From NCBI GenBank assembly GCA_964016885.1, contig OZ024764.1, forward strand, positions 20,150,001-20,214,000: a stretch of DNA of 64,000 nucleotides, in the 5' to 3' direction. The stretch comes from Eledone cirrhosa (Eukaryota). Shown one piece after another: positions 146-60,230 of this stretch. The notes below the pieces were generated by a model. It worked only from the letters and a program-made list of their open reading frames with translations. It had not been told where the DNA came from and did no database searches. The position numbers were made by a program, and so were the translations under genes. Each line of letters opens with the position of its first letter. The stretch's first letter is position 1.

Positions 146-344
146 CTAGAAACCCTGTGACCTGTTGGGTCACGTTCCCTTTAAAAATAATATTTAAATA
201 ATTAAAATGTACACAGACATGTATATATTGTAAAATGAAATTAGTAGGCCCATGTATATATATATATATATATGCGTGTGTGTGTATATATATATATGCG
301 TGTGTGTGTATATATATATATGCGTGTGTGTGTATATATATATA

Positions 345-376
<32 letters not shown>

Positions 377-392
377 CACACACGTCACTTGT
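146..392 (-). mobile_element. Non-autonomous Helitron 3' part with (TA)n/(TG)n core
   Basis: Minus strand reads hairpin cgtgacc-caaca-ggtcacag, then CTAG (146-149) and T. The microsatellite spans ~254-385. Confidence 0.6.
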
Positions 393-3504: not shown

Positions 3505-4136
3505 TTAATCTAATGTCACTAATAACTACTTTTATCTGTCAGTGTAATCTACTGTCACTAATAACTACTTTTATCAGTCAGTATAATCTAATGTCACTAA
3601 TAACTACTTTTATCAGTCAGTTTAATCTAATGTCACTAATAACTACTTTTATCAGTCAGTTTAATCTAATGTCACTAATAACTACTTTTATCTGTCAGTA
3701 TAATCTAATGTCACTAATAACTACTTTTATCAGTCAGTATAATCTACTGTCACTAATAACTACTTTTATCTGTCAGTATAATCTAATGTCACTAATAACT
3801 ACTTTTATCAGTCAGTTTAATCTAATGTCACTAATAACTACTTTTATCAGTCAGTTTAATCTAATGTCACTAATAACTACTTTTATCTGTCAGTATAATC
3901 TAATGTCACTAATAACTACTTTTATCAGTCAGTATAATCTAATGCCACCAATAACTACTTTTATCTGTCAGTATAATCTAATGTCACTAATAATTACTTT
4001 TATCAGTCAGTTTAATCTAATGTCACTAATAACTACTTTTATCTGTCAGTATAATCTAATGTCACTAATAACTACTTTTATCAGTCAGTATAATCTAATG
4101 TCACTAATAACTACTTTTATCAGTCAGTATAATCTA
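3505..4136. repeat. 39-bp minisatellite, left part (~16 copies)
   Basis: Unit TAATCTAATGTCACTAATAACTACTTTTATC(A/T)GTCAGT(A/T). Confidence 0.95.
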
Positions 4137-6519
4137 ATAATAATAATAATAATATTATTGTGTACAGTGCTCAGGTGCACTACAACTCATCAAAGGTGCA
4201 TGTATAGTACATAGAATAATGTACAAATGTCAGGAAAATAAACAGTGTATGAGTCATGATATAATAACAATAACAATAATGAAATATTGTGCACAGTGCC
4301 CAGGTGCACCACAACCCATCAAAAAAGTGCATGTACAGTACATAGGGCAATGCACAAACATCAGTAAAATGAACAGTGCACAAGTCATGATACACACATG
4401 TGTGCATGTGTATGGAAGGGGTACATCAGGTGTAGTTTTGGCGTATTTCGGGAAGCATGAGTGTCATAAAGGATGCAGTGTCTCGGCAGCTAACAATTGA
4501 CGCAGGTAGTTTGTTCCATGCTTCAGCAACTCTGAGCGTGAAAAAATGTCTGCGAAAGTCATGGGAGCTGTGCTGTTTTCTTATCTTGTAGGCATGTCCA
4601 CGTGTGTTAGACACATGGAGATCAAAGAGGCGCTCAGGGTTGCAGTTGGCGAGATGGTTAAAAACTTTGTGGGTATTCACCAAGTCCATTGCCAGACGTC
4701 GGAGCTTCAATGAATCCATGCCCAGGGAAGCAAGGCGTTCAGAGTATGGTAGGTGTCTGATGGAGGGTATGCGCTTGGTTGCACGTCTCTGAACAGTTTC
4801 CAGGAGGTCAATGTTCCGAGCAAGATAGGGGTTCCAGACTGATGATGCGAATTCCAAGTGTGGTCGCACCATAGCTGTATACAGTTTTAAATAGATGGCT
4901 GGAGAGCGGCTAACAAAGGTCTTGCTGAGCGATGCCAAGACACCCTCGGCCTTCTTGACAATCTTAGAGACATGCTTTGTCCAACGCAAATCGTTGCTGA
5001 CAGTAATGCCCAGGTCACGTTCACAAGAGGACTTTTTGATGTCAGTGTTGTGGAGGGAGTATGTGGACGCTGGATTTTTCCTTCCAAAATGCATGGTGGT
5101 ACACTTGTCCACAGCCAGCTTCAGTTGCCAGTCTGTGATCCATTGCTGCATTGTGTCCAGGTCTGATTGTAGGAAAGAGTTGTAAATTTCAGGATCAGTC
5201 CTTTTGATTTCAAGGTACAGCTTGATGTCATCTGCATATTTTAGTACCGTGGCATTCTGTAAGTTGGCATCTATGTCATTAATATATGCCACAAACAAAA
5301 GAGGACCAAGAACAGATCCCTGTGGTACACCAGATGACATCTCATATGGTGAAGAATGCTGTCCTAGAACCGTGACTACTTCCTTTCGGCTGAGAATGAA
5401 GGATTTCAGCCAGTCGAAAAGATCATCCCTCTCACCCATTGCAGAGAGTTTTGCCATAAGTCTTTTGTGTGGCACAGAATTAAAAGCCTTAGCAAAGTCA
5501 AGGTAAACAACATCCACCCATGAGCCGCTGTCAGTGATCCGGGTGATGTCCTCAAGGAACTCGATAAGCTGATCACAGCAGCTGGAGTTAGGGATAAATC
5601 CAAACTGTGAGGGCCGGATGAGGCTGTGAGAGCTCCAGAAGTTCCAAAGTTTCTCTGACACAGGATTCCATCAGTTTGGCCATACAGCTAGTAAGACTGA
5701 CTGGACGATAGTTGACAGGTGACATGCGGTTGCCCTTTTTGAACAGGGGAATGACACTGGCAGTTTTCCACTGCTCCGGAGTAGCACCATTGCTGAGACA
5801 GTATTGAAAGAAAAAAGAAAGCTGGCGCAAAAGGAAATCCCCGCCACGTTTGAGAAGCAGGTATGTCACACCATCAAGACCAGGGGAGGCATAGTTGCGC
5901 TTATTCTTAAGGTGACGTCGCAACATTGCAGGTGTAAATTCCATAGTTGTTATGGAATTTGATGTTAGAGATGGTGGAGATGGTACATTCTGGTTTTCAA
6001 CAGTAAAAATACTTGCATAGCACTCAGCAATGAGTTCTGCGCATTCCTTGGGATCGTCAGTGATCTGGCTTGTGTGGGGATTGCGAAGAGGACCAACTGG
6101 AGAGTGAGGTCTCTGCTTTGAATGAACATATTTCCAGAACACCTTACTGTCAGGATTGGTTGCGATGCACTGTTCAAATTCAAGCACTGCCTTCTTTGTC
6201 ACTTGCTTGAGATGGTTAGAAGATTTATTCCGCTTTTTTCTGTTGACATCTGATCTATGCAGTTTATATTCCCGTTCAGCGTTCCGACGTTCTTTCCTGG
6301 CAAGTCGGACCACTGAAGTTTCCCAGATTGCACTTTTGGGGTGGTTATTTTTCCGCTTCCGTGGCACTGATGCTGCACACACTATCCATATTGAGTCCAG
6401 GATGCTCTGGAGTATAGAGTTCACATCTCCAGAGTTATACATCTCATGCCAGTTTGGGCGCTGTAGCTCAGTGCAGTACAAGTTCCAATCCGCCCTCTTC
6501 CAATCAAAGCAAGCAGATT
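4137..6519 (-). mobile_element. 5'-truncated CR1-clade LINE inserted in the 39-bp array
   Basis: ORFs 5588-6481 and 4426-5661 are joined by one frameshift. Motifs NYRPVSLTS, YLDFAKAF, GVPQGSVLGP, YADD, TRGH and FF..RV..AWN.LP are present, with an (ATT)n tail at ~4137-4158. Absent from units B and C. Confidence 0.9.
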
Positions 6520-7236
6520 TGTCACTAATAACTACTTTTATCAGTCAGTATAATCTAAAGTCACTAATAACTACTTTTATCAGTCAGTATAATCTAAAGT
6601 CACTAATAACTACTTTTGTCAGTCAGTTTAATCTAAAGTCACTAATAACTACTTTTATCAGTCAGTATAATCTAAAGTCACTAATAACTACTTTTGTCAG
6701 TCAGTTTAATCTAATGTCACTAATAACTACTTTTATCAGTCAGTATAATCTAATGTCACTAATAACTACTTTTATCAGTCAGTATAATCTAAAGTCACTA
6801 ATAACTACTTTTATCAGTCAGTATAATCTAATGTCACTAATAACTACTTTTATCAGTCAGTATAATCTAAAGTCACTAATAACTACTTTTATCAGTCAGT
6901 ATAATCTAATGTCACTAATAACTACTTTTATCAGTCAGTTTAATCTAATGTCACTAATAACTACTTTTATCAGTCAGTTTAATCTAATGTCACTAATAAC
7001 TACTTTTATCAGTCAGTTTAATCTAATGTCACTAATAACTACTTTTATCAGTCAGTTTAATCTAATGTCACTAATAACTACTTTTATCTGTCAGTATAAT
7101 CTAATGTCACTAATAACTACTTTTATCAGTCAGTTTAATCTAATGTCACTAATAACTACTTTTATCAGTCAGTTTAATCTAATGTCACTAATAACTACTT
7201 TTATCAGTCAGTTTAATCTAATGTCACTAATAACTA
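6520..7236. repeat. 39-bp minisatellite, right part (~18 copies)
   Basis: Same unit as 3505-4136, resuming in register after the LINE. Confidence 0.95.
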
Positions 7237-7366
7237 ACCTATGTTAGTCAGCACATTCTTCACCAAGGAAGGCCTTAGTATTTATTACAGTCCATTTATC
7301 AATATAGAAATATTATATGAATTTTGTACTGATGTATTATAAGTTTCTGAGTATCTTATAATGTTC

Positions 7367-7380: not shown

Positions 7381-8195
7381 AATACCAGAGGACATTGGCA
7401 TTAAAGAGCACGTTACATCAGACATATCCTCAACATTAACCATTTCTAATGAAAGACACTACCCATCATTTTCAAATAATTTTGAAAACACTCAACACTT
7501 TGAAGGGATTTAATAATATAACTAAATTTCTCAGTATTAAGCTGCTATTTGGAACATAACTTTGCACAATTTCATGAAGTTACAATGGAAAGTTTTTAGA
7601 TAAATATAAAGACTGGTATGAAAAGGATAAAACACTTTTATATCAGTTGTTTCATCAACACTATTATTTAAAGATTAAAGGAAGCTGTTATACAGAACAG
7701 ATACAACCTTGTTTATATGAATCTATGGGAGAAATACTGTGAAATATTTCTTGTAAACTCAATAACACTTCTATTCTTTGCTGTCTGGAATATGTAGAAG
7801 ATACAAAATAAAGCTGAAGAAATTTACACATGATTTTGTAAGATCTTCATATATTGACAAAGATGATAGTAGATGGAACTACAGGAGTAGAAATATTTCC
7901 ATTATTACAGGAATAACTAATCAAATGAAAACTAGAAAAATTAGATTCTTCACTGTCTGGAATATGTTCAAGATGATTTTATATGTATATTAAACTTGAA
8001 GACATCAACAAAACAGTTTGTATCATCTTTAAATATAAAGAAAGACCAAGTTGATGGAAATATATCTGGAGGAATATGTTTTAGGAATAATATTATAAAC
8101 ATAAAGAAGAAAAATATCCATATATTGCGAGGAGAAAAATATTAAAACTGAATTATGTGAGAAACTGAGGTGATTGATATCTTTTAGTAGGAGTT

Positions 8196-9314
8196 ATGTC
8201 GAAAAATATAGTAAAATCACCATTCCACTGTGATATCTGTGGTAAATCATTCTCTAAAAGTACTAAATTAACTAGACACAAACTAAATCATACAGAAGAG
8301 AAGCCAAATCACTGTGATATCTGTGGCAAATCATTCTCTCATAGTAATCACCTAACTACTCACAAACGTATTCATACAGGAGAGAAGCCTTATAAGTGTG
8401 ATATCTGTAACAAATCATTCAGTCACAGTAGTAGCGTCAGAGTTCACAAACAAATTCATACAGGAGAGAAGACACATCACTGTGACATCTGTAGTAAATC
8501 ATTCTCTTGCAGATATAGCTTAACTAATCACAAACATATTCATACAGGAGAGAAACCATATCACTGTGACATCTGTGGTAATTCATTCTCTCAGAGTAAT
8601 AACCTAACTACTCACAAACATATTCATACAGGAGAGAAACCATATCACTGTGACATCTGTGGTAAATCATTCTCTCAGAGTCATCACCTAACTACTCACA
8701 AACGTATTCATACAGGAGAGAAACCATATCATTGTGACATCTGTGGTAAATCATTCTCTCATAGTCATAACCTAACTACTCACAAACGTATTCATACAGG
8801 AGAGAAGCCTTATAAGTGTGATATCTGTAACAAATCATTCAGTCAGAGTAGTAGCGTCAGAGTTCACAAACAAATTCATACAGGAGAGAAACCACATCAC
8901 TGTGACATCTGCGGTAAATCATTCTCTGACAGAAGTAGCTTTGTTAAACACCATCGTATTCATACAGGAGAGAAACCATATCACTGTGACATCTGTAGTA
9001 AATCATTCTCTGACAGAAGTAGCTTTGTTAAACACCATCGTATTCATACAGGAGAGAAGCTATATCATTGTGACATCTGTGGTAAATCATTCGCTGACAG
9101 AACTAGCTTAGCTACCCACAAACGTACTCATACAGGAGAGAAGCCATATCACTGTGACATCTGTGGTAAATCATTCTCTCATAGTAATACCTTAGCTACC
9201 CACAAACGTACTCATACAGGAGAGAAGCCATATCCCTGTGACATCTGTGGTAAATCATTCAGTGACCGTAGTAACTTAACTACCCACAAACGTACTCATA
9301 CAGGAGTACTCTGA
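8196..9314 (+). CDS. Tandem C2H2 zinc-finger protein, 13 fingers, no effector domain (ZNF-A)
   Basis: 372 aa with 13 CxxC-x12-HxxxH repeats and TGEKPY linkers. A partly deleted 14th finger follows at 9307-9360. Confidence 0.9.
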   Translation: MSKNIVKSPFHCDICGKSFSKSTKLTRHKLNHTEEKPNHCDICGKSFSHSNHLTTHKRIHTGEKPYKCDICNKSFSHSSSVRVHKQIHTGEKTHHCDICSKSFSCRYSLTNHKHIHTGEKPYHCDICGNSFSQSNNLTTHKHIHTGEKPYHCDICGKSFSQSHHLTTHKRIHTGEKPYHCDICGKSFSHSHNLTTHKRIHTGEKPYKCDICNKSFSQSSSVRVHKQIHTGEKPHHCDICGKSFSDRSSFVKHHRIHTGEKPYHCDICSKSFSDRSSFVKHHRIHTGEKLYHCDICGKSFADRTSLATHKRTHTGEKPYHCDICGKSFSHSNTLATHKRTHTGEKPYPCDICGKSFSDRSNLTTHKRTHTGVL

Positions 9315-21489: not shown

Positions 21490-21845
21490 GGAAACGACTA
21501 GATTTGTAGAAAAAGCAGGTTGAAAGTATACGAAGAGATGTAGTTTCACAGATCTACTCACCTCACGTTGGGTGGGAAATAATTATTTTTCTTAGAATTC
21601 TTTCTCGACCCCTTTTGAATATTTTCTCTGGACCCCTTAGATACTTGTAATAGACGTTTTATTCCCCAGTATTAGGGTTAGGGTTTCCGTTTTCAGGAAG
21701 AATAGTCGATTGCAAACATCTAAGAGGTCGAGAAAAATAATTAAGGAAAGATAATTATTTCCCAGCCAACTGGAGAAGTGTGTAGCTCTTCTAAACTCCG
21801 ATAATCCTGTCTCCCACTTCTTTATCTACAAATCTAGTCGTTTCC
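21490..21845. mobile_element. MITE with 26-bp TIRs and a nested internal inverted repeat; paralogs 50107-50466 and 63679-64000+
   Basis: GGAAACGACTAGATTTGTAGAAAAAG...CTTTATCTACAAATCTAGTCGTTTCC (1 mismatch). Inner arms at ~21575-21612 and ~21722-21763 flank a TAGGGTTAGGGTT motif. No TSD seen. Confidence 0.75.
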
Positions 21846-22353
21846 TGCAACTTTGACGGCCCTATTTATTGATAACACCACCTGTAAATCTTTGTCAACT
21901 TTTCATACGTAAATTGTGAATCAGTTATTTTTAAACAAACTATCAAAGAAGTGATCTCACAGTAACTGTGTTTGATTTAATCAACTTATTCCCCCCAAAC
22001 ATTGTCGACCTTGTGTCTAAATCAGAAACTATTATTAGATCTTAAATCAACCCCGTAAAGATGAAGGGGAAAGCTAACCTCGGCGGGATTTCAACCCTTT
22101 ATGTTTTGAGTTCAAATCCCACCAAAGTTAGCCTTGTCTTTCAATCTAACGGGGTGGATAAATAAAAGTTCCAGTAATCTACTGGGGTCTGAGATATTAA
22201 ACGTTTGAGTAGATTCTATCTTTTGTGTGTTTGTATTTATAATCTTACTAGAACACCTGTGACCTGTTGGGTCACGTTCCCTTTAAAAATAATTTTTAAA
22301 TAATTAAAATATACACAGACATGTCTATAATCTAAAATGAAATTAGTAGGCCC

Positions 22354-22391
<38 letters not shown>

Positions 22392-22421
22392 AGATCAAAA
22401 GATGGTTAAAGGAGTTCCATG

Positions 22422-22492
22422 TATTTTATTATGCGCATTTCAAAAACAAACATCATCATGCAATAATATTTGTGTTTTCATCAGATAAAACA
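22422..22492 (-). ncRNA. Minimal type I hammerhead ribozyme (mirror copy)
   Basis: Exact reverse complement of 22611-22681 within the palindrome. Confidence 0.75.
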
Positions 22493-22610
22493 GGAGAACA
22501 TGATATGAAGGCTAAAAAACACTTGTGGATAGTGCAGTTTTAAATCAACATATGTTGATTTAAAACTGCACTATCCACAAGTGTTTTTTAGCCTTCATAT
22601 CATGTTCTCC

Positions 22611-22681
22611 TGTTTTATCTGATGAAAACACAAATATTATTGCATGATGATGTTTGTTTTTGAAATGCGCATAATAAAATA
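22611..22681 (+). ncRNA. Minimal type I hammerhead ribozyme
   Basis: Stem I UGUUUUAU/AUAAAAUA; CUGAUGA at 22619-22625; 16-pair stem II at 22626-22661 (one C-U mismatch, three G-U pairs); GAAA at 22662-22665; 2-bp stem III with a palindromic GCGC loop; AUA cleavage triplet at 22671-22673. Confidence 0.75.
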
Positions 22682-22831
22682 CATGGAACTCCTTTAACCA
22701 TCTTTTGATCTTATATTATGTATACTCCAGTCCTACAAACTGTAGAGTGCTTCTTATCCGATATCTGCATTGCTTTATTGTACTACAATAAAACTCACCT
22801 CCTACATATATATATATATATATATATATGC

Positions 22832-22899
<68 letters not shown>

Positions 22900-23142
22900 G
22901 TCACTTGTTACAGCTATCTCTCTCTATTTATAAAGGTACCAGAAAAACCCCATTTTTACGTGAAACTTATTTTATCCCATTTGTATTCCCATTTCAGGGT
23001 CAACTTCCTTTCAAACTATTTTCCCGTTATGCCCCGTTTTGGCTGTATTACATTACAGACAAGACACAATCACAGAGTTTTAGGTTTATAATGTTATAGT
23101 ATCATGATAGGGTAATACAGTTATTTATAGACCTGTGGTAAA

Positions 23143-23302
23143 TGTTGGTTCAGTCCACCCTGGGGGATGTTAGTGTTGGTTCAGTCCACCCTGGGGGGTG
23201 TTAGTGTTGGTTCAGTCTACCCTGAGGGGTGTTAGTGTTGGTTCAGTCCACCCTGGGGGTGTTAGTGTTGGTTCAGTCCACCCTGGGGGTGTTAGTGTTG
23301 GT
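23143..23302. repeat. 30-31-bp minisatellite (~5 copies)
   Basis: Unit gttagtgttggttcagtccaccctggggg(g)t. Confidence 0.9.
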
Positions 23303-23714
23303 CATTGATAACCTTTATAACTAGAGGCCTGTTGGTGAGGACAAGCTGGATGTGGTGACATCTTTCTGCTACCTGTGTGACATGTCAGCTGGAAGTGGAG
23401 CCAAGTTCACTGCCATCGTGCTGTGCCACTCCACAGGTAACAAGTTTAGGCAGCTTCTCGTAATCCTCAAGACATGCTGGCTACCATTAGACACCATGGG
23501 GCAGGTTTATAACACCTGTGGGAGAAGTGTGTTGTTTCATGCCAGCGAGACCTGGGCCATGTTATCTGACTGTCTGAATTGACTCTGAAGAAATGACAGA
23601 GCTATGATCCACTGGATGTGTAATGTGACCATTGAGGATGATGTCAGCTCAACTGAGCTCCTAAAAAAACTGCTGATCGACAACCTCAAGGATGTGTTTC
23701 ACAGGAGACATGCA

Positions 23715-26595: not shown

Positions 26596-26854
26596 TTAAT
26601 CTAATGTCACTAATAACTACTTTTATCAGTCAGTATAATCTAATATCACTAATAACTACTTTTATCAGTCAGTTTAATCTAATGTCACTAATAACTACTT
26701 TTATCAGTCAGTATAATCTAATATCACTAGTAACTACTTTTATCAGTCAGTATAATCTAATGTCACTAATAACTACTTTTATCAGTCAGTTTAATCTACT
26801 GCCACTAATAACTACTTTTATCAGTCAGTATAATCTACTGCCACTAATAACTAA
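26596..26854. repeat. 39-bp minisatellite (~6.5 copies)
   Basis: Same unit as in unit A, uninterrupted. Confidence 0.95.
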
Positions 26855-27203
26855 CCTATGTTAGTCAGCACATTCTTCACCAAGGAAGGCCTTAGTATTT
26901 ATTACAGTCCATTTATCAATATAGAAATATTATATGAAATTTGTACTGATGTATTACAAGTTTCTGAGTATCTTATAATGTTCTTTTATTATTTCAGAAT
27001 ACCAGAAGACATTGGCTTTAAAGAGCACGTTACATCAGACATATCCTCAACATTAACCATTTCTAATGAAAGACACTACCCATCATTTTCAAATAATTTT
27101 GAAAACACTCAACAATTTGAAGTGATTTAGTAATATAACTAAATTTCTCAGTATTAAGCTGTGAATTATGTGAGAAACTGATTGATGTCTTTTAGTAGGA
27201 GAT

Positions 27204-28400
27204 ATGTCGAAAAATATAGTAAAATCACCATTCCACTGTGATATCTGTGGTAAATCATTCTCTCGTAGTAATCACCTAACTACTCACAAACGTATTCATA
27301 CAGAAGAGAAGCCATATCAGTGTGATATCTGTGACAAATCATTCAGTCACAGTAGTAGCATCAGAGTTCACAAACATATTCATACAGGAGAGAAGCCATA
27401 TCACTGTGATATCTGTGGTAAATCATTCAGTCGCAGTAATACCTTAACTACTCACAAACGTATTCATACAGGAGAGAACCCATATCATTGTGATATCTGT
27501 GGTAAATCATTCACTTGTAGTCATCACCTAACTACTCACAAACGTATTCATACAGGAGAGAAGCCTTATAAGTGTGATATCTGTGGTAAATCATTCAGTT
27601 ACAATACTAGCGTCAGAGTTCACAAACAAATTCATACAGGAGAGAAGCCATATCGCTGTGACATCTGTAGTAAATCATTCTCTGACAGAAGTAGCTTCCT
27701 TAAACACCAACGTATTCATACAGGAGAGAAACCATATCAGTGTGATATCTGTGACAAATCATTCAGTCACAGTAGTAGCGTCAGAGTTCACAAACGTATT
27801 CATACAGGAGAGAAGACATATCACTGTGACATCTGTGGTAAATCATTCAGTCAGAGTAATACCTTAACTACTCACAAACGTATTCATACAGGAGAGAAAC
27901 CATATCACTGTGATATCTGTGATAAATCATTCTCTCGTAGTAATAACCTAACTACTCACAAACGTATTCATACAGGAGAGAAACCATATCACTGTGATAT
28001 CTGTGGTAAAACGTTCTCTAAAAACAATAACCTAACTACTCACAAACGTATTCATACAGGAGAGAACCCATATCATTGTGATATCTGTGGTAAATCATTC
28101 ACTTGTAGTCAGCACCTAACTACTCACAAACGTATTCACACAGGAGAGAAGCCATATCAATGTGATATCTGTGATAAATCATTCAGTGACAGTAGTAGCT
28201 TCAGAGTTCACAAACAAATTCATACGGGAGAGAAGCCACATCACTGTGACATCTGTGGTAAATCATTCAGTCACAGAAATACCTTAATTACCCACAAACG
28301 TATTCATACAGGAGAGATACCATATCACTGTGATATCTGTGGTAATTCATTCTCTCAGAGTAATCACCTAACTACTCACAAACGTATTCATACAGAATAG
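27204..28400 (+). CDS. Tandem C2H2 zinc-finger protein, 14 fingers (ZNF-B)
   Basis: 398 aa with 14 intact fingers. It ends at a TAG within a linker, and two more in-frame finger repeats follow to 28571. Confidence 0.9.
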   Translation: MSKNIVKSPFHCDICGKSFSRSNHLTTHKRIHTEEKPYQCDICDKSFSHSSSIRVHKHIHTGEKPYHCDICGKSFSRSNTLTTHKRIHTGENPYHCDICGKSFTCSHHLTTHKRIHTGEKPYKCDICGKSFSYNTSVRVHKQIHTGEKPYRCDICSKSFSDRSSFLKHQRIHTGEKPYQCDICDKSFSHSSSVRVHKRIHTGEKTYHCDICGKSFSQSNTLTTHKRIHTGEKPYHCDICDKSFSRSNNLTTHKRIHTGEKPYHCDICGKTFSKNNNLTTHKRIHTGENPYHCDICGKSFTCSQHLTTHKRIHTGEKPYQCDICDKSFSDSSSFRVHKQIHTGEKPHHCDICGKSFSHRNTLITHKRIHTGEIPYHCDICGNSFSQSNHLTTHKRIHTE

Positions 28401-29966: not shown

Positions 29967-32019
29967 ATACTGATAGAGGGACCAGCAGTGTTAGTCGAAG
30001 GTAGTATAATAAGTAAGGCAATCAAAGATATGAAGACGGGTAAGGCGGCTGGGCCTTCGGAAATAGTTGCTGAGATGCTGAAAGCCTCCGGTACGGTGGG
30101 ACACACCATGGTCACCCGGATAGTAAACCAAGTCATACAGAATGGGGTTGTTCCGAAGGACTGGCGTAGCAGCATCATCGTTAACTGTTACAAGGGTAAA
30201 GGAGACGCCCTAGATAGGAGTAACTATAGAGGCATTAAATTAATCGACCAGGTCATGAAGGTCACGGAAAAAGTAATAGCGCAACTAATCAGAGAGAATT
30301 GACCTAGATGAAATGCAGTTCGGGTTTGTGTCAGGCAAAAGTACCACAGACGCTCTTTTCATTGTACGACAACTACAGGAGAAGTACCTAGCTAAAAGTA
30401 AACCCCTATACTTAGCTTTTGTCGACTTGGAGAGAGCCTTCGACAGAGTCCCCCGTTCCATTATCTGGTCGGCTCTTAGAAAACTAGGTGTTGACGAATG
30501 GCTTGTGAGAGCCATACAAGCCATGTATAAAGAAACAGTCAGCAAGGTTAGAATTAACAACGAATATAGTGAAGAGTTTAGCGTAAAAGTTGGTGTCCAT
30601 CAGGGCTCTGTTCTTAGCCCCCTACTATTTATTATTGCCCTTCAGGCTATAACAGAGGAGTTCAAGACCGGCTGCCCATGGGAACTCCTATACGCAGATG
30701 ATCTAACGCTCATAGCTGAATCAATGGCCGAGCTAGAGAAGAAATTCCAAACATGGAAGCACGGTCTAGAATCAAAAGGACTTAAAATTAACCTGGCTAA
30801 GACTAAAGTTCTAGTTTGTAGGAAAGAAAATAAGGCGCCGGTCCCCTCCGGGAAATGGCCATGCTCAGTGTGTAGGAAAGGCGTAGGTAGAAACTCCATT
30901 TTATGTCCCAAATGCAAAGTATGAGTGCATAAAAGATGTAGTGGGATCACAGGTAAGCTAACTAAGAACACAGATTTTACATGTGGCCGGTGCTCTGGTG
31001 CAATAAGTAGCAGCAAGTGCCCACGAAATACTAGCTCATTCAACTGCGCAGAGGGCTCTATAGAAATAGTGGACAGCTTCCGTTACCTGGGTGACAAAAT
31101 CAGCAGTGGGGGAGGGTGCTCTGAAAGTACAGTAGCTAGAGTCAGAACTGGATGGAAAAAGTTCGGAGAGCTTATACCACTATTAGCCGCTAAAGGGTTC
31201 TCCCTAAAAATGAAAGGCAGGTTGTATGATGCCTGCATACGAACAGCAATGTTGCATGGCAGTGAGACCTGGGCATTGTGTGCAGAGGATATACGCAGAT
31301 TAGAGAGGAACGAAGCTTGCATGCTCCGCTGGATGTGTAATAGTAATATACCTGAACGGCAAAGCATAAACGAACTAAGGAAAAAATTAGAAATAAGAGG
31401 GATCAGATGTTTACTCGAGAGAAGGCTACGTTGGTATGGTCACGTGATGCACATGAAAGACGACAGCTGTATAACAAAGTGCAGGGCAATAAAGATAGAT
31501 GGTAGCCACGGAGTAGGCAGACCCAGGAAAACCTGGGACGAGCTGATAAATTCCGACCTCACACACTTACACCTCTCCAAGACAATGTCACTGGACCGAG
31601 ACCTTTGGCGGTACTCAGTAACAGAGAAGACCCGCCTTACCTAAATACAAAGTAAAACCTCCTAGTCAGTAGGCATCTCTAACAAAATTCACCCCGTCCC
31701 ACTCTATCCACACCGCCCCCTCGAAATGCAAAGTTATGTTGGTGCCACAACATCCAGGCCGAAACAAACGAGATCGTGTAGGTGTCACGACAAAAAAACA
31801 CACAGTCCATGCTGTAATGTGACCGTGTAGGCAACACGGTAAAAACCTCCCAGTCCCACACTGTAAATGTGGTTGGTGTTAGGAAGGGCATCCAGCTGTA
31901 GAAAACCCGCCAGACAGTCCTATGCGAGCAAGACAACCACTCTTGCCTCAAGTAGGAAAACCCCCGTCCAAACCAATGCAAGCGTGGAACAGGGACGTTA
32001 AACGATGATGATGATGATT
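29967..32019 (+). mobile_element. 5'-truncated RTE LINE, private to unit B
   Basis: ORF pieces 29964-30302, 30313-30924 and 30925-31644 with NYRGIKL, GVHQGSVLSP, YADD and HGSETW; 3'UTR and (GAT)n tail. Empty sites at ~11325 and ~54570. Confidence 0.9.
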
Positions 32020-32348: not shown

Positions 32349-34059
32349 GTCATCATCATCATCATCACCGTTTTACGTCCGTTCTTCCACGCTAGCATGG
32401 GTTAGACGGGTTATCCTGTTGTGGGCAGTGTCTGGTCGGCTGACCATGCCTTGCTCATACAGGAACTGATCTGGCTTGATTTCTACAGCTGGATGCCCTT
32501 CCTAACACCAACCTCATTTACAGTGAGTGCTGGGTGCTTTTTCGTGGCGCCTACACGTCCACTTTACAGTGTGGGCTGGGTGCTTTTTTGCCGTGGCACC
32601 TCCACGACCACCTTGTGGGGGGGGGGGGGGGGGGGCATATTGTTTATATGCTTCAGCATGTACCCATGGGAGGTCGGGTACCCTGTATTACTGCGTGACG
32701 CCAGAAGTCACGGTCGTGTGTCATTGACTTTGAGAGGTGTAGTTGGGTAAGGTCGGCTTTTATCACCTCATCCCAAGTCATCTTGGGTCTCCCCACTCCG
32801 CGGTTTCCATCAACTTCTAGTGCTCTGCACCTTTTTATGCAGCTGTCATCCTTCATACGCATCACATGTCCATACCAGCGTAACCGCCTCTCCTGCACGC
32901 AGCATTTGATTCCTCTTATGCTCAGTCTCTCTCTCAATTCATTTATGCTTTGTCGTTCACGTATATTACTGTTACACATCCATCGGAGCATGCAGGCTTC
33001 GTTTCTCTCTAATCTACGTAAGTCTTCCACCTTCAGCGCCCAGGTCTCACTACCATGCAACATCGCTGTTCGGATACACGCATCATACAGTCTGCCTTTC
33101 ATTCTGAGGGAGAAGCCTTTTGCAGCTAGCAGTGGTAGTAGTTCCCTAAACTTCTTCCATCCCGTTCTTACCCTAGTTATTGTACTTTCTGAGCACCCAC
33201 CTCCGTTGCTAATTCGGTCACCTAGGTAGCAGAAGCTGTCTACTGTTTCTACAGGGCCCTCCCAGAGATTGGTGGTACTTGTTTCCTGTGGCTGTTTGCT
33301 TGCTGTTTCAGCACAGCTGCTGCATGTGAATCCTACATTCTTAATTAAGCTTCCTGAGATCCCGCTACATCTCTTGTGTACCCATTGTTTGCATTTGGGG
33401 CAAAGAATGGAGTTCCTACCTACACCTTTCCTACATACTGAGCAAGGCCATTTCCCTGAGGGGATCTGGGTTCTGTTTTCTCGTCTACTTATAAGGACCT
33501 TAGTCTTTGTCATGTTGACTTTGAGGCCCTTTCTCTCTAGTCCCTGCTTCCAGGTTTGGAATTTATTCTCTAGTTCTACCATAGATTCAGCTATGAGTGC
33601 GAGGTCATCAGCATACAGGAGTTCCCATGGGCATCCGGTCTTAAACTCCTCCGTTATTGCCTGCAGGACTATGATGAACAGGAGAGGGCTAAGAACAGAG
33701 CCCTGGTGGACCCCAACCTGTACGCTAAATTCCTCGCTATACTCATTGCCAATCCTAACTTTGCTGACTGCTCCCCTATACATGGCTTGTACCGCTTTCA
33801 CAAGCCATTCATCTACTCCTAGTTTTCTAAGAGCCCACCAGATTACTGCACGTGGAACTCTGTCAAAGGCTTTCTCAAGGTCGACAAATGCCAAGTAGAG
33901 TGGCTTACTTTTAGCTAGGTACTTTTCCTGTAATTGCCTTACAAGGAAGAGCGCATCAGTGGTGCCTTTCCCTGGTACAAACCCAAATTGCATCTCGTCT
34001 ATATTCACCCGGTCCCTAATCAGCTGTGCTATAACTCTTTCTGTTACTTTCATGACCTG
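32349..34059 (-). mobile_element. 5'-truncated RTE LINE with an uninterrupted RT frame
   Basis: Open frame from QVMKVTERV to the stop at 32653 (MQFGF, DLEKAFD, QGSVLSP, YADD); 3'UTR and (GAT)n tail at ~32350-32367. Confidence 0.9.
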
Positions 34060-34079
34060 TATATATATATATACGTATG

Positions 34080-34383
34080 AAGCATATAGACAATATGCCA
34101 CCATAACCTCCCATTGCAAGGTGGTCGTGGAGGTGCCACGGCAAAAAAGCACCCAGCCCACACTGTAAAGTGGACGTGTAGGCGCCACGAAAAAGCAGCC
34201 AGCACTCACTGTAAATGAGGTTGGTGTTAAGAAGGGCATCCAGCTGTAGAAATCAAGCCAAATCAGTTCCTGTATGAGCAAGGCATGGTCAGCCGAGCAG
34301 ACGCTGCCCACAACAGGACAACTCGTCTAACCCATGCTAGCATGGAAGAACGGACGTAAAACGGTGATGATGATGATGATGAT
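34080..34383 (+). mobile_element. RTE 3'UTR-only copy, inverted relative to 32350-32655
   Basis: Close reverse complement of the neighbouring element's 3'UTR, ending in (GAT)n. Confidence 0.85.
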
Positions 34384-51317: not shown

Positions 51318-52239
51318 TTAATCTAATGTCACTAATAACTACTTTTATCTGTCAGTATAATCTAATGTCACTAATAACTACTTTTATCAGTCAGTTTAAT
51401 CTAACGTCACTATTAACTACTTTTATCAGTCAGTATAATCTAATGTCACTAATAACTACTTTTATCACTCAGTATAAGCTAATGTCACTAATAACTACTT
51501 TTATCAGTCAGTTTAATCTAATGTCACTAATAACTACTTTTATCTGTCAGTATAATCTAATGTCACTAATAACTACTTTTATCAGTCAGTATAATCTAAT
51601 GTCACTAATAACTACTTTTATCTGTCAGTATAATCTAATGTCACTAATAACTACTTTTATCTGTCAGTATAATCTAATGTCACTAATAACTACTTTTATC
51701 AGTCAGTTTAATCTAATGTCACTAATAACTACTTTTATCTGTCAGTATAATCTAATGTCACTAATAACTACTTTTATCTGTCAGTATAATCTAATGTCAC
51801 TAATAACTACTTTTATCAGTCAGTTTAATCTAATGTCACTAATAACTACTTTTATCAGTCAGTTTAATCTAATGTCACTAATAACTACTTTTATCACTCA
51901 GTATAATCTAATGTCACTAATAACTACTTTTATCACTCAGTATAATCTAATGTCACTAATAACTACTTTTATCACTCAGTATAATCTAATGTCACTAATA
52001 ACTACTTTTATCAGTCAGTTTAATCTAATGTCACTAATAACTACTTTTATCAGTCAGTTTAATCTAATGTCACTAATAACTACTTTTATCAGTCAGTTTA
52101 ATCTAATGTCACTAATAACTACTTTTATCAGTCAGTATAATCTAATGTCACTAATAACTACTTTTATCAGTCAGTATAATCTAATGTCACTAATAACTAC
52201 TTTTATCAGTCAGTTTAATCTACTGCCACTAATAACTAA
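51318..52239. repeat. 39-bp minisatellite (~23 copies)
   Basis: Same unit as in units A and B. Confidence 0.95.
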
Positions 52240-53182: not shown

Positions 53183-53896
<714 letters not shown>

Positions 53897-59849: not shown

Positions 59850-60230
59850 AGATGGGTCATAAAAGAACTAAATACGAAAGTCCTCACAGCAAAAAGGAAA
59901 TAATTGAGTTTTGGGTCTAGGTCAAGGGGCAGAAGTGCTGCGCCCTGTGGATAAGACTGCAAAAGTATTCGCCCCGGACGATGGACAGTGACACCCACTG
60001 CAACAGCCACCCCAACCTCATGGGGCTCCCTCTTCAGAAGAGCCACCAACGTTCTGATCTTACAGAGGAGCTTGGCAGTACGGGGTCCAAGTACTTCTGA
60101 GGTCTCGATGGTGACCGGTGTGAAGAGACCTACAATTGATGTCATCCCAGTTATGTTGGACTGTAATATACTGGGGTATAGAGAGGCCTTAACCTGTCTC
60201 AGCCGGGCCACCCAGGGTTGTGTCATCTAG
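59850..60230 (-). mobile_element. Old RLE-type non-LTR 3' fragment; partial paralog 18905-19010
   Basis: FTPVTIETSEVLGPRTAKLL resembles FQPVAFETFGGVGSLTARFL of the element at ~49480-49540. Confidence 0.5.

Follow-up and report, generated by a model that had tools for sequence, protein, structure and literature searches.

Penelope-like elements (PLEs) are among the closest described systems to the locus analysed here. Head-to-head inverted pseudo-LTRs (pLTRs), with palindromes at their junctions and an optional tail on one side, belong to the standard anatomy of these elements (PMC3846280, PMC8557442, PMC8969392), and (TA)n targets with a hidden target duplication have been reported for Neptune and Naiad, the Naiads being described without canonical hammerheads (PMC3846280, PMC8557442). 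The minimal hammerheads of metazoan PLEs are of type I, with a long helix II, a tiny palindromic helix III and an activity predicted for dimers only, and pairs of hammerheads on opposite strands 100-700 bp apart have been noted (PMC4209133); minimal hammerheads of pLTRs have also been reviewed (PMC6765202). With regard to the enzyme, PAc of Anolis Poseidon, a predicted dimer, cuts AT-rich DNA and extends both strands; two reverse-transcription start sites downstream of the hammerhead delimit the tail, and the hammerhead is dispensable for insertion (PMC11167929). For Penelope, an internal promoter whose start is defined has been described (PMC2377424). Families of Penelope with recent activity have been reported in Octopus vulgaris (PMC13282606), and the origin of the inverted repeats and tails of PLEs is called an open question in PMC8557442 and PMC11167929.

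In the twin or dual priming of L1, the two target strands prime two cDNAs, and the joining of these at their 3' ends leaves an inverted insertion (PMC2837659). Non-LTR retrozymes are short, ORF-less repeats with a type I hammerhead, thought to be derived from PLEs and mobilised by them (PMC7229834, bioRxiv 10.64898/2026.07.22.740005), and they are defined by head-to-tail tandems and circular RNA. Long duplexes derived from repeats are known to undergo A-to-I editing, lizard Penelope being massively edited, the palindromic Harbinger of the frog also being edited, and octopus having a high duplex content (PMC5625713); octopus was left out of the repeat-family analysis of that paper, and it names no octopus family.

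The locus studied here lies in a tandem cluster of C2H2 zinc-finger units, rich in LINE, LTR and DNA-transposon fragments, that makes up the window, by which we mean the whole 64-kb stretch of DNA that was analysed (Table 1). Recomputation confirmed that positions 22384-22719 form an exact inverted repeat without spacer or loop, with arms of 168+168 bp (336 bases); a second inverted-repeat scan extended the arms to 173 bp at 99%, and in the whole 64-kb window this is the sole palindrome with arms of at least 12 bp that is not a microsatellite. The initial annotation had also placed it in a (TA)n tract and reported it missing from the paralogous site in unit A, and both observations hold, since (TA)n lies on both sides and the site in unit A consists of a microsatellite only. 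The extension that had been measured as 88 bp is indeed present on one arm only, the right one, with (TA)n resuming after position 22805, but its length is about 86 bp. The arm has no long reading frame and the insertion contains no ORF. What remains of the earlier description of the insertion as very young is that it postdates a duplication of units whose copies are 94-96% identical; the identity of the arms is no clock, because a single RNA is the likely source of the two arms and a perfect palindrome may become homogenised.

Table 1. Positions of the palindrome, its parts and its surroundings in the window
Feature	Position	Strand	Remarks
Left (TA)n target tract	22357..22383	.	Edge of the element uncertain to within a few bases; a target-site duplication, if present, would be masked by the repeat; single TA tract at the corresponding place in unit A
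Left arm, tailless element copy, antisense on the plus strand	22384..22551	-	Extends between the 5' end of the family and the internal 3' end (mirror of 22719); complements the right arm exactly
Minimal type I hammerhead motif, minus copy	22422..22492	-	Descriptor match, core at 22484
Self-complementary ATAT at the palindrome centre	22550..22553	.	Fixed 5' end of the family, common to both arms, from the junction rows
Right arm, sense element copy	22552..22719	+	Exact complement of the left arm; holds all 12 run-specific A>G/T>C sites (22590-22695)
Minimal type I hammerhead motif, plus copy	22611..22681	+	Descriptor match, core at 22619; predicted cut after 22673
Stem/loop III 8-nt palindrome that could pair two ribozyme copies	22665..22672	+	Duplex -10.5 kcal/mol; stem III probability in the monomer <=0.001
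One-sided tail, about 86 unique bp, between the two family 3' ends	22720..22805	+	Unpaired in the hairpin; 0 run-specific A>G/T>C sites
Right (TA)n/(GT)n/(AC)n microsatellite	22806..22899	.	Collinear with unit A
Paralogous microsatellite in unit A, empty of the palindrome	255..384	.	Both flanks collinear with the palindrome site
ZNF-B, downstream C2H2 zinc-finger ORF	27204..28400	+	Context only

The palindrome is genuine: it represents a single insertion of a short repeat that is very abundant and bears a hammerhead motif, and its centre is the fixed 5' end of this repeat family rather than a random truncation point. It resembles the inverted pLTRs of endonuclease-bearing PLEs (PMC3846280, PMC8557442) in its head-to-head copies, junction palindrome, tail on one arm, hammerhead within the repeat and (TA)n target. 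There is no poly(A) at the insertion, and the target is AT-rich or (TA)n both at the locus and at the two 3' ends of the family. This likeness to the literature supports what had been proposed from the sequence, namely a PLE-type terminus with a predicted minimal ribozyme of the dimer type, inserted in inverted form with a one-sided tail. The locus differs from these pLTRs in that no ORF or direct pLTR is found between or beside the arms and that the overlap of the two copies is perfect and of full length. Other features stand against a PLE model in its published form: the tail exceeds the 30-40 bp published, the 5' end is fixed whereas PLE copies are described as randomly truncated at the 5' end, and stem II lacks the G10.1-C11.1 pair called highly conserved in PLE hammerheads (PMC4209133). 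In comparison with PAc, the family has in common the AT-rich targets and, under the model set out below, the extension of both strands and two start sites delimiting a tail; the PAc ORF, however, starts inside the hammerhead, whereas the equivalent frames of our family stop within 20 codons, and the available text of PMC11167929 does not tie the two start sites to the junctions of inverted pairs.

Weighing these likenesses and differences, we consider it reasonably probable that the palindrome arose when a high-copy, ORF-less hammerhead repeat of about 256 nt, likely a PLE pLTR stub copied by a PLE enzyme (RT/GIY-YIG) encoded elsewhere, inserted into a (TA)n tract, and that the mirror was likely built during insertion. 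The repeat works like a PLE pLTR insertion, its formal membership awaiting a parent ORF. A search for such an RT/GIY-YIG ORF gave none among the 67 scanned of the 119 ORFs in the window and none in the insertion. In metagenome contigs the exact pattern used for the parent search had no matches, and the relaxed pattern had three, all of them chance matches of about 14 bases in prokaryotic DNA with no wider similarity.

To characterise the family, four public sequencing runs, X1 and X5 (organism A), X4 (organism B) and X22 (organism C), were aligned to positions 22512-22805, a stretch of 294 bp that takes in the tail together with one arm and 40 bp of its partner. Run X1, which is DNA-like and may be the source of the window itself, yielded 4166 contigs on this stretch, 1347 of them at least 99% alike, which confirms at the family level that many other genomic copies exist. 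The summed depth in X1 was 0.25-2.3 million as against 7-160 for single junction contigs, and although summed contig depth is noisy and does not equal copy number, we infer from these values a family of hundreds to thousands of copies. Words of the element were found in 20 run rows covering 16 organism codes and 15 studies, 15 of these codes being other than organism A, and none of the rows is listed as RNA. Run X4 contributed five contigs with a depth of 2-5 and 0-2 differences, and X22, a sample other than the listed holder of the words in organism C and read to about 1/100, contributed no reads, a zero that does not count as a negative. Horizontal spread of the repeat was considered and set aside, carry-over between libraries of a very high-copy repeat being the simpler reading of the trace depth in X4. 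The sequences upstream of the loose ends differ between records, the best-supported one having four contigs, and no common upstream body is visible; four X1 contigs carry a common AT-rich sequence before 22549 (agreement 0.9), a candidate master or autonomous locus. Loose ends in X1 also point to three subfamilies: one near 22605 that diverges past the first 55 nt (7 contigs), one near 22643 with another 5' strand of stem II and the core kept (7 contigs), and one near 22706 with another 3' terminus running into (TA)n (40 contigs).

The structure of the other copies was examined at their junctions, using the best-supported 15 of 34 joints and the best 12 of 15 filler rows, that is 27 rows that may overlap and in which the far end of the long arm falls outside the tables. 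Other copies are head-to-head pairs as well, with one arm shortened. Among these best-supported rows the antisense arm exits at 22547-22553, the centre of the palindrome, in 25 of 27, so that one arm is variable and the other sits at the fixed end, while the partner arm may start anywhere in 22550-22784. The start of this short arm lies at or beyond 22705 in 17 of 25 best-supported rows, which makes the tail-bearing arm the short one, and in 11 of 27 it lands within 22705-22713, just upstream of the internal 3' end. The family has two 3' ends, at about 22719 and about 22805, each of them followed by (TA)n; the loose ends concerned were found behind 22716 (10 contigs) and 22724 (32 contigs) in X1 and behind 22804 (one contig) in X5. 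The depth peak in X1 is broad, with about 2.0 million over 22662-22711 and lower values on either side (upstream 0.9 million, tail 0.8 million). Although summed depth is noisy, this implies more long overlaps than the list of junctions suggests, a point against the model of insertion set out below.

The two arms are joined through 0-4 bases of microhomology or through a short filler. Fillers after 22553 start with C in seven of the nine rows listed, a C being expected at this place from the copying of a cap G. In several fillers the C seems to be followed by the final 4-12 bases of the terminus copied again, in one case twice over, and one filler row contains repeated re-copies of the terminal 12 nt. 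These patterns suggest cap copying together with a reiterative, telomerase-like re-priming.

The junctions seem best explained if both target strands act as primers, with reverse transcription beginning at two start sites. Under this model the RNA would start at the fixed 5' end (22550) and would probably be capped. Judging from the published PLE enzyme, an endonuclease would then nick both strands of AT-rich DNA, and each strand would prime reverse transcription, one at the internal start near 22719 and the other at the end of the tail, 22805. The junction rows bear out in part the step that would follow, in which the internally primed cDNA reaches the 5' end and the tail-primed cDNA usually stops early, mostly just past the start of the other, before the two cDNA 3' ends are joined in the ways just described. 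At the palindrome locus both cDNAs would have been completed and paired via the self-complementary ATAT, leaving a perfect palindrome with the tail on one side. Such a process would differ from L1 twin priming (PMC2837659) in that the internal start is apparently fixed, poly(A) is missing, and the overlap ranges from deletion to full duplication.

An alternative that starts from the same PLE-type stub, and that we regard as unlikely, is that the mirror arm is made by fold-back self-priming, the cDNA reaching the 5' end, snapping back and copying itself, or an antisense template priming itself as proposed in PMC3846280. The constancy of one arm at the 5' end in the best-supported rows agrees with such a process, as do the short self-complementary word at the centre, the filler row with its repeated re-copies of the terminus and the interpretation of junction palindromes as self-priming products in PMC3846280. 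However, a first strand without a tail cannot template a tail, and while many copies end tailless at 22716-22724, the short arms of most of the best-supported rows reach into it; these tailed short arms therefore argue against fold-back, and a snap-back with zero loop could not directly yield the palindrome locus.

Still less probable is a non-LTR retrozyme, whose tandem hammerhead repeats would have been cleaved into monomers that became circular and were inserted again, the inverted pair at this locus being a coincidence. The unit of about 256 nt, the lack of an ORF and the type I hammerhead would fit, and retrozymes are reported to be derived from pLTRs (PMC7229834, bioRxiv 10.64898/2026.07.22.740005). 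The family nevertheless consists of head-to-head pairs with defined ends; head-to-tail joints, which are direct tandems, numbered zero among the best 15 of 34 joints and none occurs at the palindrome locus. The predicted cut does not coincide with the 5' end of the family but lies about 120 nt downstream of it, there are two 3' ends into (TA)n, and the hammerhead is minimal, not canonical.

We give very little credence to a fold-back DNA transposon or a MITE whose palindrome would exist before it moves and whose hammerhead-like motif would be incidental: a perfect inverted repeat in TA-rich DNA would be expected of it, and a palindromic DNA transposon of the frog is a known editing target (PMC5625713), but the centres vary between copies and carry fillers, which means that the mirror structure is not passed on as one piece, the two ends lack symmetry, and the hammerhead descriptor had no match in 30 simulations. 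A fold-back artefact of assembly or library preparation, which the initial annotation had itself raised, is scarcely credible, for in spite of the perfect spacerless symmetry and of the fact that no listed contig spans the entire 294-bp stretch, such a fold-back would mirror the flank too, yet both flanks are collinear with unit A, the left arm stops where other copies stop, and all 26 sampled words of 22390-22800 are present in two runs (possibly the source sample of the window itself, and with junction words not singled out).

The hammerhead motif is the second feature by which the family can be compared with PLEs. In the 64-kb window the type I hammerhead descriptor matched the two arms and nothing else, and the simulations mentioned, 64-kb order-3 Markov sequences, had matches in 0 of 30. 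The search for hammerheads that the initial annotation had called for was thus positive with the descriptor on both arms, but none of the Rfam hammerhead models matched, even at E-values of up to 10; over the 64 kb, Rfam gave no match at the gathering score, and scans by E-value returned only sub-threshold look-alikes of miRNAs, driven by hairpins, and of box C/D RNAs. The claim that each arm folds into a complete hammerhead stands for the 8-bp stem I (with one G.U), the CUGAUGA and GAAA segments, the 2-bp stem III with its GCGC loop, the AUA triplet and the cut predicted after it; stem II, however, has 15 pairs and not 16, arranged as 3+12 around a C/U mismatch and including three G.U pairs. 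In the palindrome copy stem II is closed by A-U in place of the usual G10.1-C11.1, and a subfamily among the loose ends of X1 has G at position 10.1. The motif therefore shares with the metazoan PLE hammerheads described in PMC4209133 the type I topology, the long helix II and the palindromic helix III, and it departs from them in its longer helix II and helix I and in its A-U closing pair. The palindromic helix III is predicted to allow ribozyme dimers.

The conservation of the core in other genomic copies was upheld, given that no position of the catalytic core varies at 5% or more in run X1. The variants at or above 5% within the hammerhead are four, three of them stem changes that keep a pair and one a change in loop II. 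In an X1 loose-end subfamily the core and stem I are changed at 0 of 13 positions and the 5' strand of stem II at 6 of 17 (p=0.02). That stem II keeps its pairs carries little weight, since 13 of 15 transitions in its 5' strand would preserve pairing in any case.

The initial annotation had supposed that RNA from this locus would choose between a hairpin and a self-cleaving fold. Computed folds do not bear this out: the full hairpin has -274.3 kcal/mol against -6.4 kcal/mol for the monomer hammerhead, the antisense arm is transcribed first on either strand, and no hammerhead pair formed in seven of seven folds of read-through prefixes. With the hairpin favoured by more than 260 kcal/mol and the antisense arm made first, these models argue against a two-state switch in read-through RNA. 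Such RNA from either strand is instead predicted to zip into the 168-bp duplex before the ribozyme folds, a long hairpin that would silence the ribozyme and leave the hammerheads as silent passengers at this locus. The two motifs lie on opposite strands, which precludes dimerisation in cis. In RNA starting at the centre, the computed probability was about 0.97 for stem II, 0.02-0.82 for stem I and at most 0.001 for stem III. A functional switch in an intron of ZNF-B, toggling between self-cleavage and hairpin formation or editing to regulate the gene, is accordingly most improbable, for although the site lies 4.4 kb upstream of the ZNF ORF, which has a candidate splice acceptor (26996-26997), and the family appears edited, the palindrome is missing in the paralogue, the hairpin wins and forms first on both strands, no cis dimer can form, and the intron predicted earlier finds no backing beyond that one acceptor, no upstream exon having been located.

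Long hairpins of this kind would be expected as substrates of ADAR, as the initial annotation had proposed, and run X5 bears on this at the level of the family. This run (88 million letters) comes from organism A and from a sample other than that of X1, it is not on record as RNA although we take it to be so, and its variant sites are listed at 5% or more only. Of its 29 listed variant sites, 17 are common to X1 at similar shares (ratio 0.4-3.7), and the remaining 12 reach 5-21% in X5 and less than 1% in X1. Each of the 12 sites specific to X5 is an A>G or T>C change, as against 4 of the 17 common sites (Fisher p=6e-5), and they occupy 12 of 106 A/T sites in the arm and none of 41 in the tail (p=0.02). 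Their 5' neighbours are U in seven cases, A in four, C in one and G in none, a pattern as described for ADAR in PMC9989829. The presence of both A>G and T>C corresponds to both strands, as a hairpin would give, and the tail, which the hairpin leaves unpaired, is spared. Contigs less than 90% alike amount to 90 of 514 in X5 versus 208 of 4166 in X1. A loose end of X5 was tried as a further subfamily and rejected, since it is better read as hyper-editing, with four T>C changes in succession together with the top X5-only site. If X5 is RNA, these results make ADAR-like A-to-I editing of the duplexes of this family likely, in the manner reported for the hyper-edited repeats of PMC5625713; the ADAR proposal thus gains support for the family, and no edit can be assigned to the palindrome locus itself. 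Since X5 and X1 are different samples, the X5-only sites might in principle stem instead from alleles or from a small number of expressed loci.

Adopting a conservative view, the locus is an ordinary copy of a repeat, and inverted tailed pLTRs, minimal hammerheads and edited Penelope repeats have all been published already; what distinguishes the family is its fixed 5' end, its 86-bp tail and the lack of an ORF. Within the open-access literature, with subscription papers and repeat databases outside the scope of the search, we found no description of the family and none that links the inverted junctions of PLEs to twin priming, although octopus repeat libraries of the Repbase or Dfam type, or the supplement of PMC13282606, may already contain it. 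A short, high-copy family with a fixed 5' end offers hundreds or more natural junctions, so that twin priming and fold-back can be separated by computation alone, and it is a candidate source of long duplex RNA in what is likely an octopus genome. A more far-reaching possibility, which we put forward tentatively and consider doubtful, is that the family is a self-propagating, SINE-like parasite of PLEs in an octopus genome, with a capped RNA of about 256 nt made from its own internal promoter, a dimeric PLE enzyme, and twin priming for which one RNA offers two fixed start sites. If so, each insertion would be a new ADAR substrate of variable length that switches off its own ribozyme, the family could be a sizeable source of the hyper-editing of cephalopods, and the junctions, where stalling would cluster at the second start site, a C would be templated by the cap and the last 4-12 nt of the template would be copied again in the manner of telomerase, would be an in vivo record of a step of PLE integration that is unresolved. 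A scan of the sequence for sigma-70 promoters remained at chance level, its model being bacterial and not applicable to an animal.

With regard to the surroundings of the palindrome, the window contains three tandem C2H2 zinc-finger ORFs (8178-9314, 27186-28400 and 53183-53896) that differ in their numbers of fingers and whose units are 93-97% identical outside the finger arrays, and a fourth unit apparently starts near 60000. The four relatives of highest identity to the N-terminal part of ZNF-B are Octopus proteins (66-70%), Octopus accounting for 7 of 35 matches, so that the host is likely an octopus; protein searches with the whole ZNF and RTE ORFs were uninformative on the host. Each ZNF exon is preceded by a 39-bp minisatellite whose copy number varies widely (3505-4158, 6520-7259, 26596-26876 and 51318-52238), and that of unit A is split by a LINE RT insertion (about 4160-6520). 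To the right of the microsatellite, unit B has about 570 bp (22912-23479) that are missing from unit A and include a 31-bp tandem repeat (23143-23302). Upstream of the palindrome there are two older, imperfect inverted repeats, 21490-21845 (74%) and 22046-22159 (68%), from which further duplex RNA could arise, and two RTE-like RT ORFs in opposite orientation (30249-31644 and 32653-34326), which share 77% identity over 1.4 kb and are separated by about 1 kb, constitute another potential long duplex.
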